Notes under the pieces: generated by a model
What the model was told of the DNA's origin: nothing
Seen by the model: only the letters and a program-made list of their open reading frames with translations
Database searches by the model: none
Program-made: the position numbers and the translations under genes
Source of the DNA: Octopus vulgaris
Taxonomy: Eukaryota
DNA: 64,000 nt
Direction: 5' to 3'
NCBI GenBank assembly: GCA_951406725.2
Contig: OX597815.1
Coordinates: forward strand, 101,680,001 to 101,744,000
Shown: piece after piece, positions 24,718 to 62,580 of the stretch
How positions within the stretch are numbered: the stretch's first letter is position 1
Layout: each line of letters begins with the position of its first letter

Positions 24718-24760
<43 letters not shown>

Positions 24761-24762
<2 letters not shown>

Positions 24763-25362
24763 CTAAGCAATTAAGGGTTTAGCAACGAATTGCCTTACCA
24801 CACACCGAATTTAGAAATAGCAGTCAAAGAGATTATAGCTATTTCTTCTACTAAAAGGGAGATCACAGTAAAGGCACAGCATTTGATACTAGCTATGGCT
24901 TCTAGCTCGCTCTGATACTGAGTTGAGTTGGTGCCTTCTAGTATCTCAAAATTCAATATTCAATCATTCATGATTGTTAGTATCCTGCGCTGATGAAAGA
25001 AGAAGTCTGGGTAAAGTAGAGTTATCTAATTCTTATGCTTTCCTAAGACTTGATCTCGAAACGTACGTCCGTAGGTGACTTAAAACTGTATGATAGATTG
25101 CTGTTAATTCATTCTCTTTTACCTGTTTGTGTTTGCCTTTCAAATGCTGTGCCTTTACTGTGATCTCCTTTTAGTAGAAGAAATAGCTATAATCTCTTTG
25201 ACTGCTATTTCTAAATTCGGTGTGTGGTAAGGCAATTCGTTGCTAAACCCTTAATTGCTTAGTATTACTTAAATTTTCCTCGAATGAGGCTTTTACATGC
25301 CGAAGACTACTTGGTGTAATTGATAATTGTTCCAAATTAATTAATTTCACCCTTCATTGTTA

Positions 25363-25365
<3 letters not shown>
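24761..25365 (+). mobile_element. Non-coding fold-back element in (TA)n, PLE pseudo-LTR-like
   Basis: About 125-bp near-perfect inverted repeat (24761-24886 / 25140-25264) around a hammerhead motif; (TA)n on both sides. Confidence 0.75.
24984..25075 (+). ncRNA. Type I hammerhead ribozyme motif
   Basis: Stem I CCTGCG/CGTAGG, core CTGATGA (24990-96), long stem II, GAAA (25058-61), palindromic ACGTACGT stem III, GTC cleavage triplet ending 25069. Confidence 0.8.
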
Positions 25366-25427
<62 letters not shown>

Positions 25428-25899: not shown

Positions 25900-26630
25900 A
25901 AAGCGGTGACCTGGCAGAAACGTTAGCACGCCAGGCGAAACGCCTAGCGGTATTTCGTCAGCCGCTACGTTCTGAGTTCAAATTCCGCCGAGGTCGACTT
26001 TGCCTTTCATCCTTTCGGGGTCGTTTAAATAAGTACCAGTTATGCACTGAGGTCGATATAATCGCCTTCATCCGTTTGTCTGTCCTTGTTTGTCCCCTCT
26101 GTGTTTAGCCCCTTGTAGGTAGTAAAGAAATAGGTATTTCGTCAGCCGCTACGTTCTGAGTTCAAATTCCACCGAGGTCGACTTTGCCTTTCATCCTTTC
26201 GGAGTCGATTAAATAAATACCAGTTACGCACTGGGGTCGATATAATCGACTTAATCCATGTGTCTATCCTTGTTTTTCCTCTCTGTGTAGTCCTTGTGAG
26301 CAGTAAAGAAACAAGAAACTTTAGCACGCCGGGCGAATTGCTTAGTGGTATTTCGTCTGTGTTTACGTTCCGAATTCAAATTCCGTTGATATTGCAGCAG
26401 TAGTGCGTGCCTGTGTATTTTAAGCTAGGGCATGGCCATTCTCACCTCAGAAGGTGTTGACACCAAATGAAGGCCTGACAAGGGGAACACGTTTTGCCTT
26501 TCATTCTTTCGGGGTCGATAAATTAAGTACCAGTTGCGTACTGGGGTCGATCTAATCGACTGGACTCTTCCCAAAAAAGTTTGGGCCTTGCACTTAGAGT
26601 AGAAAAGAATATTTAGACACTACTTTGTTA
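25900..26630 (+). mobile_element. Head-to-tail array of three SINE family B units
   Basis: Units at about 25900-26131, 26132-26312, 26318-26630; the third is interrupted by a LINE-derived insert. Confidence 0.85.
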
Positions 26631-26789: not shown

Positions 26790-28880
26790 GACCGCCTTCT
26801 CCGTCATGCTTATTTCACCTTTTTTCACCGCTGTTCACTATCCGTTGCACATTCCACCTTACGCTTCATCTTCCACCTAAACCACCTTTTCCATGACTCT
26901 CTCGTTCGCACTAAACAACATAAACTCCACTCACTCTTTCATCCTGTCCCACCTGATGCCACTACACGTCCCCCTCCTTCCCCGATCCACTCCAGCTCAT
27001 CCATTACTCCAGCCCTACCACACACCATTTCCTCCTCTCTCGCCTCCCAGCCTACCACCGCCTCTCCATTGCCTCCCCACCTAATCCCCCCTCATGCCAC
27101 TTCTGTGGTTACTATTCTTGTAGTTACCATTCCTCCTGATCTCCCGCTCTCTGAAGCAGAGCGCTCTCTTCTCAGTAAGGGTATGCGCTTCATACCCCTC
27201 ACAGTAACGAGTTTCAGACCCATGCTGATATCCAGTACTTTGTACGCCGCGTCAGGCTACGTGTACTATTCCACAACACCCCACATGCATCTAATGAAGA
27301 AAACTGCTTCACTGATCTGGGCCGCCGACCATCCCATTGGACGCCAGCTCCTGACAAGTTCCAAGCAACTGCCAACGTTTTATGGACCGGTTTAACTTTC
27401 ATAGGCGTCCCCGATAGTTCAGCAACTCCCCAGCCGAACTCTCGGCCCTTCGATGTCGCCGACGGCGGAAAGATATCTTCATTAAACCGGCCGATAAGGG
27501 TGAAGTTGTAGTGGTGTGACGCGCAGACATTACAAGGCCGAAGCTCTCCGTCACCTTCAAGACACCTCCTTCTGTTGCCCACTGCCCTCCAACACCACGC
27601 CTAATTACCAAAAGACTGTGATCTTTGCTATTCATGACCTCATTTCCTCCTCCCGTCTCCCTCCCACTGCCTCCAACATCATTGTCTGTACCCCCACGCA
27701 CTCCCAGAATTTACTTCCTTCCCAAAATTCACAACCCCAACAACCCTGGCCACCCCATCGTCTCCGCCTGCAACTGCCACACGGAAATGATCTCTAAATA
27801 CCTCGACCGCGTCCTTTCCTTCTAGTGGCTTCCCTCCCCTCACACATCCACGATACCAATCATGCTCTCCGTCTGTTTAACACATGGGGGTGTTGGAGAA
27901 GTAGGAGCAGGTACGACAGCGTGGGCGGGAGAAGGGAAGGAGCTAGGCATGAAGGCGGGGGGTAGGGAAAAATATGGACCAGGAAGTCACGCATGTCATG
28001 AGCCTCCTGGCCCCTCTCAACTTCTGTTCACTTTTGACATTAAAAGTTTGTATACGGTGATCCCAGGCAACGAGGGACCTCTTGCGCTTAAAACTTCCTT
28101 GACCTTCGGCCTGACCCTCAACCTGACAACCTGGCGAACGTGTCCTCTCCCTCATCTACCTCTCGTTCGCAGGGTGGACATGAGAACGAAAATGAGCCCA
28201 ACTATGCAAACCTGTTCGTCGGCTACGTTGAGACCCAAATATTCACACAATTTACTGGTCCCACTCTCGAGCTGTACGGTCGTTATACCAATGACTGTAT
28301 CGGGGCGACCTCACTCTCCCGCGAATAACTGGAGCCCTTCCTCTCTTTTCTCCAATCCTTCCATCCTTCCCTCGGATTCTCCTTCACTATCTCTAATACT
28401 TCTGTCGAATTTCTTGGCTTTTCTGTCAGCATACAGCACTCAGCTCTCACTACCTCCATCCACTACAAACACATTGTCTCACACTCCTACTTTAACTTCT
28501 CCTTTTCCCACTCTACCCACACTAAGCGCTTCATCCTCTATTCCCAGTTCCTTCGTCTACGCATTATTATCTCCCTTCCTTTCAACCACTTTTTAAAATT
28601 ATTATCTTCCTTTCATTCAACCACTTTTTAAAATTATTATCTTCCTTTCATTCAACCTCTTCTTTTCTAGTCAACCCGCTATGGTAGAGAGCTGAACTCA
28701 ACACAGTTTCTCGCTTTCGGTTTTTTTTTCTTTTTTTCGCTATCTCTCCATTTTCGTCTTATTCCTTTCTGTCGAAAAGCGTAGGCTCGAAACGTAGAAG
28801 ACTGTTCAATTTTCCCGAGCGTTAAACTAATACACCTGCTTGTTCCTACACCTATTTTCGTCTTTCGTTCTGTTGTAAAT
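26790..28880 (+). mobile_element. Decayed Penelope-like element (Neptune-type) RT plus pseudo-LTR
   Basis: IFIKPADKG, PRIYFLPKIHNPNNPGHPIVS, LFTFDIKSLYT, PNYANLFVG, RYTNDC; GIY-YIG region missing; hammerhead-like CTGTCGAAAAGCGTAGGCTCGAAACGT at about 28769; ends at (TATG)n. Confidence 0.85.
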
Positions 28881-59366: not shown

Positions 59367-59500
59367 GGGGCAGGTGTGGCTGTCTGGTAACAAACTACGT
59401 TCCAAACACATGGTCCTGGGTTCAGTCCCACTATGTGGTGACTTGGCATGTGTCTTCTGCTGTAGCCTCAGACCAACAAAAGCTTCTCATTGGATTTTGT
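59367..59500 (+). mobile_element. SINE family A head inside the Helitron
   Basis: GGGGCAGGTGTGGCTGTCTGGTAA...GGGTTCAGTCCCACT. Confidence 0.7.
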
Positions 59501-59629
59501 ACATATATACAGGCATACATACATATATATACTTGCATACGTACATATTCGCCATAAACACTCTACCACTACAACTAATAACTGTTGGGAACACTTTCAA
59601 ACCTGCCTTACATTCAAACCGGAATCTCA

Positions 59630-62494
59630 ACGCCCGAGTTTTCCATCTGAAGTTAATCTCTCTCATGGAGCTCATACAAAAAGGGCAAGTCTTTGGGTCC
59701 ATACAATGGGACATGTACACAATCGTGTGGCAAAAAAGGGGCCTTCCACATGCTCATATCCTGCTTTGGCTCTCAGCGAAGATCAATTCCAATGACGTCG
59801 ACAACATAATCTCTGCAGAGCTTCCTGATCCAGCTTTAGACAAAGAACTATACTAAATAGGTAAAGCAAACATGGTACATGGTCCATGTGGGTGTGGATT
59901 CAACATAAACACACCATACTTGAAGGACAGCATATGTTCAAAAAGATTTCCAAGGAGGTTCCTACAAGAAACTCAGACAGGTGCTGATGGTTATCCATCA
60001 TACAGACGCAGAAAACCAGAAGACGGAGGTTTCACAGCAACTATCGGACAGCACGATATTGATAATAGATGGATTGTTCCATACTGCCCACTCCTGTCAA
60101 AGACTTTCAATGCCCACATCAACGTTGAGTTTTGCAACTCCGTTAAATTCATCAAGTACTTTTTGCAAATATGTAAACAAGGGTTCTGACGCTGCAATGT
60201 TTGGATTTCAACAAGAATACTACCAGGATGAGGTGACGCATTATCAGGTGGGACGGTACATAAGTAGCAACGAGGCATTCTGGCGCATCTTTGGCTTTCC
60301 AATTCACCAATGACACCCCGCCATTCAACAGCTTGCAGTGCACCTGGAAAATGGTCAAAGAGTGTACTTCACCAATGCTAATGCTTCTCTGTTGGCAGAG
60401 GAACCAACGGATAGCACACTCACTGCATTCTTCAAGCTTTGTCAAGTGGATCCATTCGCTCAAACCTTGCTGTATCCACATTCACAGATTCCATCGTACT
60501 ACATTTGGAATGGAAAAAAAATGGGCTCCAAGGAAAGCAGGTCAAAATGTTCGTGGATACCCTGGCATTAAGTTTCACACTTGCCTTGGGCGAGTATACA
60601 CAGTGCATCCCACTCAACAAGAGTGCTTCTACCTTCGTCTACTACTGCATGAGGTCAGAGGGCCAACTTCTTTCCAGGCCCTAAAAACCGTTCATGGACA
60701 TGTCTGCACAACATACAGAGAAGCCCGCTATCGACAAGGTCTGTTAGAAGATGGTGCACAATGGGATGCAACTTTAGAAGAGGCTGCTTTATCACAATCA
60801 CCTAAAAGTCTCAGGGCACTATGTGCAGTATTACTACAGGCATGCGAACTGTGTGATCCGGCCACTCTATGGCTCAAATATAGAGACAACCTGGCTGGAG
60901 ACTTTCAGCGCCAAGCTCAACTGCTCTATCCTGACATGAAGGGTATCAGCAATGAAATCTATAACAAAACACTCATTGACATTGAAGACAGAATTGCTAA
61001 ACTGGGTGGAAATGAATTGTCGACGTATGGCCTGCCACAAGCATTCAGGTCAGGGTCAAATAGCCATCCCACTGCTGTCATTCGTGAAACAACCTACGAC
61101 ACTCAAGAGCTTTCAAAGTACATTGTTGAAAATGAGCCTACATTACTTCCGGACCAGCTGCAGACCTACAGAACTATTCTTAACAGCGTACGCCAACGCG
61201 AGGGACGAATCTTCTTCCTCGATGCTCCTGGAGGGACAGGAAAAACATTTATTACAAAGCTTCTCCTTGCAGAAGTTAGGCAGCATCAAGACATTGCAGT
61301 AGCTGTAGACTCCTCTGGCATTGCAGCTACTTTGTTACCCGGTGGCAGGACAGCACACTCAACTTTCAAACTCCCTCTCAATTTAGCAGCATCCGAAATG
61401 CCTTCATGCAACATCAACAAAAGCTCAGATCAGGGACAAGTACTTAAAATGTGTCATCTAATTGTCTGGGATGAGTGCACTATGGCTCACAAGGGAGCTT
61501 TGGAAGCATTAGATAGAGCCCTGAAAGACATCCGAGACTGTCAGGCTCCAATGGGAGGTGTAACGCTTCTGTTGTCAGGTGATTTCAGGCAAACTCTTCC
61601 TGTCATTCCGAAAGGCACTAGAGCAGATGAAGTCCAAGCATGCTCAAAACCCGCCAGCCTGTGGCATCATGTTACAATCCTCAGTCTCACCACTAACATG
61701 AGAGCTCAGCTACACGGCGACAACATGTCCACAAAGTTTGCACAGGACATTTTGACACTTGGTGAAGGCAAGATGCCTCTCGATGCTGCAGGACAAATAG
61801 AAGTGTGGTCATTTTCCTCTGTTGTTAATTCTGTAGATGACCTCAAAAACAAAGTCTTTCCCAACTTCGCACAAAACTGCCAAAATCACAATTGGCTGTG
61901 TGAAAGAGCAATATTAGCTCAAAAAAACGTCGTTGTTAACAAAATTAATCAACAGCTAATGCATTCTCTTCCCGGCATTATACACACTTACAAGTCTGTT
62001 GATACAATTCCAGATATAAATGAAGTTGTGAACTATCCTCCTGAATTTCTCAATTCACTGGAGCCTCCTGGACTACCTCCACACATATTAGCACTTAAAG
62101 TTGGAACTCCTGTACTGCTACTCCGCAACCTGGAACCACCAAGACTTTGCAATGGAACACGACTGGTGATAAAGAAAATGATGTCACACGTTATCGAGGC
62201 GATCATTCTTTCTGGATGTGGAAAAGGTGATGACGTCTTTATTCCAAGAATTCCTCTTACTCCATCAGGAGCAGAAATTCCATTTACATTCAGAAGACTG
62301 CAAATCCCCCTTCGTGTCAGCTCTGCCATGTCCATTAACAAATCTCAGGGTCAAACCCTCTCTGTAGCTGGTCTTCTCTTGGAAGAGCCCTGCTTCTCGC
62401 ATGGGCAACTGTATGCTGGCTGCTCAAGAGTAGGAACCAAAAGAAACCTCCACAAGGAAAAACAAGGAACATTGTTTACAACGAGGTGTTATAA
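59630..62494 (+). pseudogene. Helitron RepHel (HUH Rep plus PIF1-like SF1 helicase), frameshifted
   Basis: QKRGLPHAHILLW (HUH), MVHGPCG, DNRWIVPY, KYVNKG, DAPGGTGKT, IVWDECTM, GDFRQTLPV, INKSQGQT, HGQLY..CSRV; long open stretch about 60520-62450, likely true end GKTRNIVYNEVL*. Confidence 0.92.
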
Positions 62495-62580
62495 TCTCAA
62501 CAGCCAGGAGGTATATAAGTGATCCCCTTTTTTTTTTTTTAACAAACTTCATGTACTTTCATGTATTTATATTAATATAC

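Follow-up and report, generated by a model that had tools for sequence, protein, structure and literature searches.

The window copy and its hammerhead

The window is a 64-kb stretch of Octopus vulgaris DNA and contains a short non-coding element inserted into a (TA)n repeat. The element is composed of two arms arranged head to head, and its direct arm harbors a type I hammerhead ribozyme. Positions within the element are given as m1–m587, the coordinates of a natural monomer of the family (L017:1501–2087).

24737–24762, no strand: left-hand (TA)13 target repeat; the inverted arm includes its final 3 nt
24760–24886, minus strand: inverted 5′-truncated second arm, m257–m383, ending at the "short" 3′ end
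24884–24886, no strand: 3-nt microhomology at the head-to-head arm junction, found by arm comparison
24884–25368, plus strand: direct arm, m1–m486 of the 587-nt monomer, ending at the "long" 3′ end
24984–25075, plus strand: type I hammerhead with 6-bp stem I, CUGAUGA core and 61-nt stem II, matched by the descriptor
25172–25368, plus strand: 3′ module, about m290–m486, the best-conserved part in sister families A and B
25266–25368, plus strand: ~103-nt tail of the type seen in Penelope-like elements (PLEs), between the short and long ends, from end mapping
25366–25424, no strand: (TA)n target repeat on the right, from the window sequence

The two copies of the inverted repeat (24760–24886 and 25140–25265) are identical in 126 of 127 alignment columns. 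This comparison is in line with the sequence-only reading, which had described near-perfect inverted repeats around a hammerhead, (TA)n on both sides, and a PLE-type inverted partial copy; the last corresponds to the 5′-truncated arm m257–m383. The ~600-bp stretch that it took as the element unit is, however, a composite. The monomer is really ~586 bp, and the copy consists of m1–m486, without m487–m587, plus the inverted duplicate of m257–m383. The short end lies at m383 (with a variant at m392) and the long end at m486, and no target site duplication is readable within the flanking TA repeats. The direct arm is up to 99.4% identical over its full length to other copies. In the predicted RNA fold the two arms form a ~126-bp duplex that encloses the ribozyme. 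With only one hammerhead and falling short of a full monomer, the copy is probably an inert dead end. By analogy with the anole PLE (PMC11167929), its 3′ module (about m290–m486) is the predicted region of protein binding and reverse transcriptase (RT) initiation.

Stem I of the hammerhead is formed by CCTGCG (24984–24989) and CGTAGG (25070–25075). CTGATGA starts at 24990, followed by stem II (24997–25057, 61 nt, about 24 predicted pairs) and by GAAA from 25058. Stem III is the palindrome ACGTACGT, written ACGUACGU in the feature list, with C17 at 25069. The core CUGANGA...GAAA...UH is present at the three-way junction, and a motif-based descriptor matched nowhere else in the 64-kb window and not once in 200 dinucleotide shuffles. 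Stems, core and descriptor together uphold the initial assignment of a type I hammerhead with predicted cleavage after C25069. The Rfam scan suggested by the same reading returned no hammerhead family among 49 matches at E≤10, probably on account of the long stem II. The miRNA-type Rfam matches are microsatellite artefacts. Stem II opens with A10.1·C11.1, as had been noticed, and the expected G10.1–C11.1 pair is absent. A second hammerhead remnant had been proposed at 25281–25305. This candidate is rejected, since a CUGANGA or CCGANGA core occurs in 0 of 147 homologous copies; the segment sits in the PLE-type tail.

Other repeats are present elsewhere in the window. Two or three partial copies of a repeat (D3–D5), which we take to be SINE-like, lie at 25916–26561. 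A Helitron occupies 59368–62522; it matches Helitron_like_N and PIF1 helicase and includes an open frame of 752 aa.

Tandem arrays and insertion ends of the family

A search of the 2.8-Gb genome (227 contigs) with the element identified dispersed copies with up to 99% identity among the best 40 of 1,903 candidates. An 18-mer that covers stem III together with the cleavage site has 1,102 exact genomic matches, and its reversed control has 0. By these exact matches the family has no fewer than 1,102 hammerheads in the genome. Other copies conserving core and stems, whose absence would have counted against the sequence-only reading, do occur, and the stems covary. The family forms dispersed head-to-tail arrays of non-coding monomers of 582–593 bp (~586 bp), one type I hammerhead per tandem unit, the window copy itself being of sub-monomer length. 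Short arrays are located at hundreds of sites, and the longest contain about eight monomers. The longest ATG-started ORF of the element is only 32 aa, no ORF combining PLE RT and GIY-YIG domains is present in it, and none of 79 insertions has an LTR-flanked interior. Contigs from sequencing runs (three presumed RNA, one untyped) span the monomer and the tandem junction, and are uninformative on transcription, ends and circles. One old family copy carries in its stem II an inserted ~1.3-kb element with terminal inverted repeats (L041:665–1965), which presumably resembles a mariner transposon.

Insertion ends were mapped in these 79 insertions, comprising 60 of the 61 loci with the 18-mer on contig C1 and 19 non-overlapping best-match loci; 10 overlapping loci and one running off its edge were left out. 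The hammerhead-sense 3′ ends in the C1 sample (n=84) fall into two windows ~100 nt apart, which together take 75 of them: 48 at m376–395 and 27 at m472–499, with 9 elsewhere. TA repeats adjoin 75 of the 84 ends, compared with background frequencies of 6% (the window) and 12% (distant flanking sequence). Free 5′ ends number 36 in the same sample; they are scattered, and 19 of them adjoin TA.

A head-to-head inversion is present in 40 of the 79 insertions and absent from the other 39. Short and long ends are paired in 31 of the 40, and neither a short-short nor a long-long pair was found. The remaining nine have one unclassified end, including L024, a false inversion caused by a sister-family neighbor. 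Single-armed copies end short in 29 cases, long in 8 and elsewhere in 2, and arm lengths vary between copies from about 30 to 3,500 bp. The pairing is a countable rule, short plus long in 31 of 31 classifiable inverted insertions, and the junctions can be read as carrying a PLE priming signature. Just one unconstrained arm 5′ end out of 95 falls in the cleavage-site interval m180–195, where about 2.6 would be expected if they were uniform, which indicates that copying passes through that site. The family displays the insertion anatomy of PLEs, namely tandem copies, 5′ truncation, an inverted copy and a one-sided tail. The paired short and long ends suggest that insertion at TA by the enzyme of a coding PLE is likely.

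Coding PLEs and evolution of the hammerhead

The genome contains thousands of PLE ORF candidates, belonging to at least four PLE families according to protein and family searches and 12 longer regions. Intact 717-aa ORFs (L181–L185) are near-identical and arranged in 2.59-kb tandems and also in inverted arrays; this PLE is apparently active. Its protein has a weak GIY-YIG match only and a CxC...CP linker, which we assume to be Neptune-like. The hammerhead of this family has a CCGAAGA core (U4C). In one inverted array the two ends lie 105 and 38 nt past the hammerhead, both in TA repeats, which corresponds to a 67-nt tail. The intact 781-aa PLE (L186–L190) has a GIY-YIG match above the cut-off and an RVT_1 match just below it. 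An ORF lies upstream of it, the 3′ region is repetitive and the ends abut TA; a pattern search between its ORF end and the TA repeat found no hammerhead. The third coding PLE (L091–L120, L191, L192) is very abundant (14,961 first-look candidates) and has an asparagine-rich linker. Its stem II measures 52–54 nt, its stem III is nearly palindromic, and its two ends, which adjoin TA repeats, are separated by about 160 nt. Because coding PLEs here have them, a long stem II and a long tail are traits of PLEs across this genome, and the stem II of the window copy loses the unusual status first given to it. A weak tblastn match to the 781-aa protein (E 2e-9) marks a decayed RT-type fragment at window positions 28197–28655.

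Neither BLAST nor nhmmer revealed pseudo-LTR homology to the monomer in 101 PLE-bearing loci, a small share of the thousands of candidates. The matches obtained at these loci were considered as links to a parent and rejected, as all are neighboring insertions of this or the sister families. In addition, tblastn of three PLE proteins against the monomer gave nothing under E=1. PLE ORF fragments beside copies L031 and L089 belong to other families and have their own 3′ ends, with TA repeats in between. Of the linkage that the sequence-only reading proposed to look for, the TA flanks are therefore present (at 75 of 84 3′ ends), but none of the 101 PLE loci links the element to an RT/GIY-YIG ORF.

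Covariation of the stems was assessed in 26 hand-picked, related rows, their 3′ side fixed by the sampling 18-mer. The 14 core pairs are paired in 97% of cells and contain five two-sided changes, compared with 18–42% and 0–1 pairs in slid controls. The count of two-sided pairs is not significant in a shuffle control (146/500), and three of the five depend on the split from sister family B. The distal part of stem II is less supported, with 80–83% paired. The stems still covary, which argues that hammerhead cleavage was under past selection.

Exact 23-mer searches, all lower bounds, gave 71 genomic matches for A10.1, 48 for its G sister and 376 for the U4C variant. A 96-row tree groups the 37 A10.1 rows into a single clade and the 22 U4C rows into another, both nested among G/U copies. 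The bootstrap is not settled, the A branch being essentially the site itself; a 35-row A subclade has support of 99/94. The G10.1–C11.1 pair is kept in older clades, and A·C is found in the expanded A10.1 clade. A10.1, with 71 copies, marks a single expanded clade, and U4C, with 376, marks another. The A·C opening pair, initially read as a possible impairment of this single copy, is accordingly a subfamily character. An ADAR switch, by which inosine at A10.1 would restore the pair, was considered and found unsupported: 0 of 37 A-clade rows have G, in a clade sampled by query similarity, and G at 10.1 in the run contigs is accounted for by G-bearing subfamilies. In published hammerheads, U4C lowers activity yet suffices in a viroid, and 10.1–11.1 belongs to the most strongly conserved pairs, U·U being the best-tolerated mismatch there (PMC3088659). 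A literature search on the G10.1/C11.1 mismatch returned nothing.

Two sister non-coding families complete the picture. Family B (L223–L252) has a compensated stem I (CCCAUG/CAUGGG) and a GUA cleavage triplet, and its stem II opens with A·C in 6 of 7 cases and with A–U in 1 of 7. Stem III changes from ACGUACGU to ACGCGCGU and is still palindromic. The palindrome in the present family and in family B fits dimer folding as described in PMC4209133, and agrees with the earlier suggestion of a stem III suited to dimers. Family A (L193–L222, for example L212:945–1500) is built of tandem monomers of 556 bp; its 3′ module is the same and its ends likewise lie at TA. Its core is degenerate, with CCGAUGU in 12 of 12 complete matches and a stem II region of ~100 nt. 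The m290–480 module is common to both sister families at about 75%, and for that reason is likely a cis signal.

Mobilization and relation to known systems

The window copy is, in our assessment, very probably a truncated two-armed copy of a non-LTR retrozyme whose family is likely copied in trans by the RT-endonuclease of a coding PLE. The family is a non-LTR retrozyme, or non-autonomous PLE, a class already known. PLE insertions have been described as partial tandems with an inverted 5′-truncated copy, a 30–40-bp tail that is often one-ended and a bias for (TA)n (PMC8557442; PMC3846280). In vitro work on the anole PLE showed both strands of AT-rich DNA being cut and then extended by its protein. 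Reverse transcription began at two positions inside the RNA, the distance between them being equal to the tail, and RNA was inserted just as well when its hammerhead was dead (PMC11167929, Frangieh et al. 2024).

By analogy with the anole PLE, a helper PLE protein would attach to the 3′ module of an RNA in tandem (or circular) form, nicking both strands at a (TA)n site. One of the cDNAs would start from the long site and the other from the short site, and the two truncated cDNAs would be joined via microhomology to give the apparent inverted repeat. The hammerhead is predicted to cleave weakly, likely best as a dimer, and this insertion step would probably do without its cleavage; insertion of the family without cutting by its own ribozyme is thus a possibility. 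Circles and uncut multimers both fit as template, and L017 needs a mixed one. Several observations stand against the PLE-helper model: no coding parent with pseudo-LTR homology occurs in the 101 loci sampled, the ~103-nt tail exceeds the reported 30–40 bp, and the homogeneity within arrays also fits a single circular template. The covarying stems, which point to past selection on cleavage, speak against a dispensable ribozyme.

A more far-reaching proposal has two parts, and their joint truth is offered tentatively, as something we would sooner doubt than expect. The first holds that the junctions are a direct record of mobilization in trans, in which a PLE primes at two internal sites, the two cDNA arms strictly combine one short with one long end, and a ~200-nt module acts in cis. 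The second holds that the successful young lineages repeatedly weakened their own ribozyme (in two families by A10.1·C11.1; also by U4C and A9U), since the template of transposition would be uncut tandem RNA and not the circle.

The strongest rival, to which we give substantial though minority weight, retains the same family and helper and makes a hammerhead-cleaved, religated circular monomer the obligatory template, copied by rolling circle with cleavage essential. Monomers of the same array differ at 0–5 sites in 8 of 9 arrays, below typical between-locus distances, and the circular monomer has a stable predicted fold (−159 kcal/mol, z about −4.9 versus 30 shuffles). The covarying hammerhead stems favor this rival as well, RNA circles are known for coral, mussel and axolotl retrozymes (PMC7229834), and read-through of the cleavage site is compatible with circles no less than with uncut multimers. 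Array L017, however, cannot come from one circle, because its monomers differ at 10–14 sites. The expanded clades with A10.1·C11.1 or U4C and the CCGAUGU core of family A (12 of 12) also weigh against essential cleavage, as does the insertion of anole PLE hammerhead mutants all the same (PMC11167929).

A further rival, in which an autonomous PLE with an unsampled ORF sheds the copies as solo or tandem pseudo-LTRs, is improbable. The coding PLEs here do share the hammerhead architecture and paired TA-abutting ends, and homology between retrozymes and pseudo-LTRs is reported in Xenopus (Li, Clavereau & Pollet, bioRxiv 10.64898/2026.07.22.740005), but the arrays run from monomer to monomer with no ORF, the fragments at L031 and L089 come from other families, and the tblastn comparison was negative. 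Of the two options left by the sequence-only reading, the young non-autonomous, retrozyme-like and PLE-related element in TA is hence retained, and the solo pseudo-LTR is disfavored in view of the ORF-less head-to-tail arrays and the lack of a coding parent among the 101 loci sampled. Less probable still is a satellite that would spread at the DNA level through unequal exchange or fold-back repair, carrying the hammerhead along as a passenger: within-array homogeneity and the satellite-birth model discussed in the same preprint would suit it, but short arrays at hundreds of dispersed sites, the short-long pairing rule, and fixed 3′ with scattered 5′ ends point to RNA-templated insertion. A MITE or other DNA transposon inserted at TA, suggested by the near-perfect ~126-bp inverted repeats and TA flanks, has next to no probability and was rejected, as the right repeat is internal and followed by a 103-nt tail, arms range from about 30 to 3,500 bp, 39 of 79 insertions have no inversion, tandem arrays occur, and fixed terminal inverted repeats at both ends are absent from the 79 insertions.

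With copying in trans by a coding PLE as the preferred reading, the family bears on how animal retrozymes move. The 2026 preprint (bioRxiv 10.64898/2026.07.22.740005) argues for a PLE origin of retrozymes from co-occurrence and pseudo-LTR homology, describes their mobilization mechanism as still to be worked out, and in its main text covers no mollusc. Here, the junctions of the non-coding family themselves bear the PLE priming signature. A genome with both the retrozyme and intact PLE ORFs makes it testable in vitro which PLE mobilizes a retrozyme in trans, and also whether mobilization is aided or impeded by cleavage of the hammerhead. A search of openly accessible literature, its scope not extending to Repbase, Dfam and supplements, found no account of the family or of paired PLE ends in retrozymes, and a term look-up in the main texts of PMC7229834 and the preprint found no inverted arms, paired ends or TA targeting.

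Like metazoan non-LTR retrozymes (PMC7229834; bioRxiv 10.64898/2026.07.22.740005), the family consists of non-coding tandem monomers with one type I hammerhead each, has low GC, no LTR-flanked interior in the 79 insertions and a well-folded predicted circle, and shares its genome with PLEs. Its monomer of ~586 bp is longer than the 170–400 nt of Cervera & de la Peña 2020 (PMC7229834) and falls within the 51–972 bp of Li, Clavereau & Pollet 2026. Stem II is ~60 nt here in contrast to the canonical 4 bp. Compared with the minimal and dimeric type I hammerheads of PLEs (PMC4209133; PMC3088659), the short palindromic stem III permitting a dimer is common to both, and the natural core variants, U4C and a mismatched 10.1–11.1, have precedents there. 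Differences are the 6-bp stem I and a much longer stem II, with about 24 predicted pairs compared with 7–8 bp in those ribozymes, and A10.1·C11.1 is fixed in a subfamily here whereas the published tolerated mismatch is U·U (PMC3088659). The closest structural counterparts of the insertions are EN+ PLEs such as Poseidon_Ac (PMC11167929) and Neptune/Naiad (PMC8557442; PMC3846280). Features in common are partial tandems, 5′ truncation, an inverted 5′ copy, a one-ended tail, AT-rich or (TA)n targets and a hammerhead upstream of the RT start sites; the octopus element differs from them by having neither an RT nor a GIY-YIG ORF and by a tail of ~103 nt rather than 30–40 bp.
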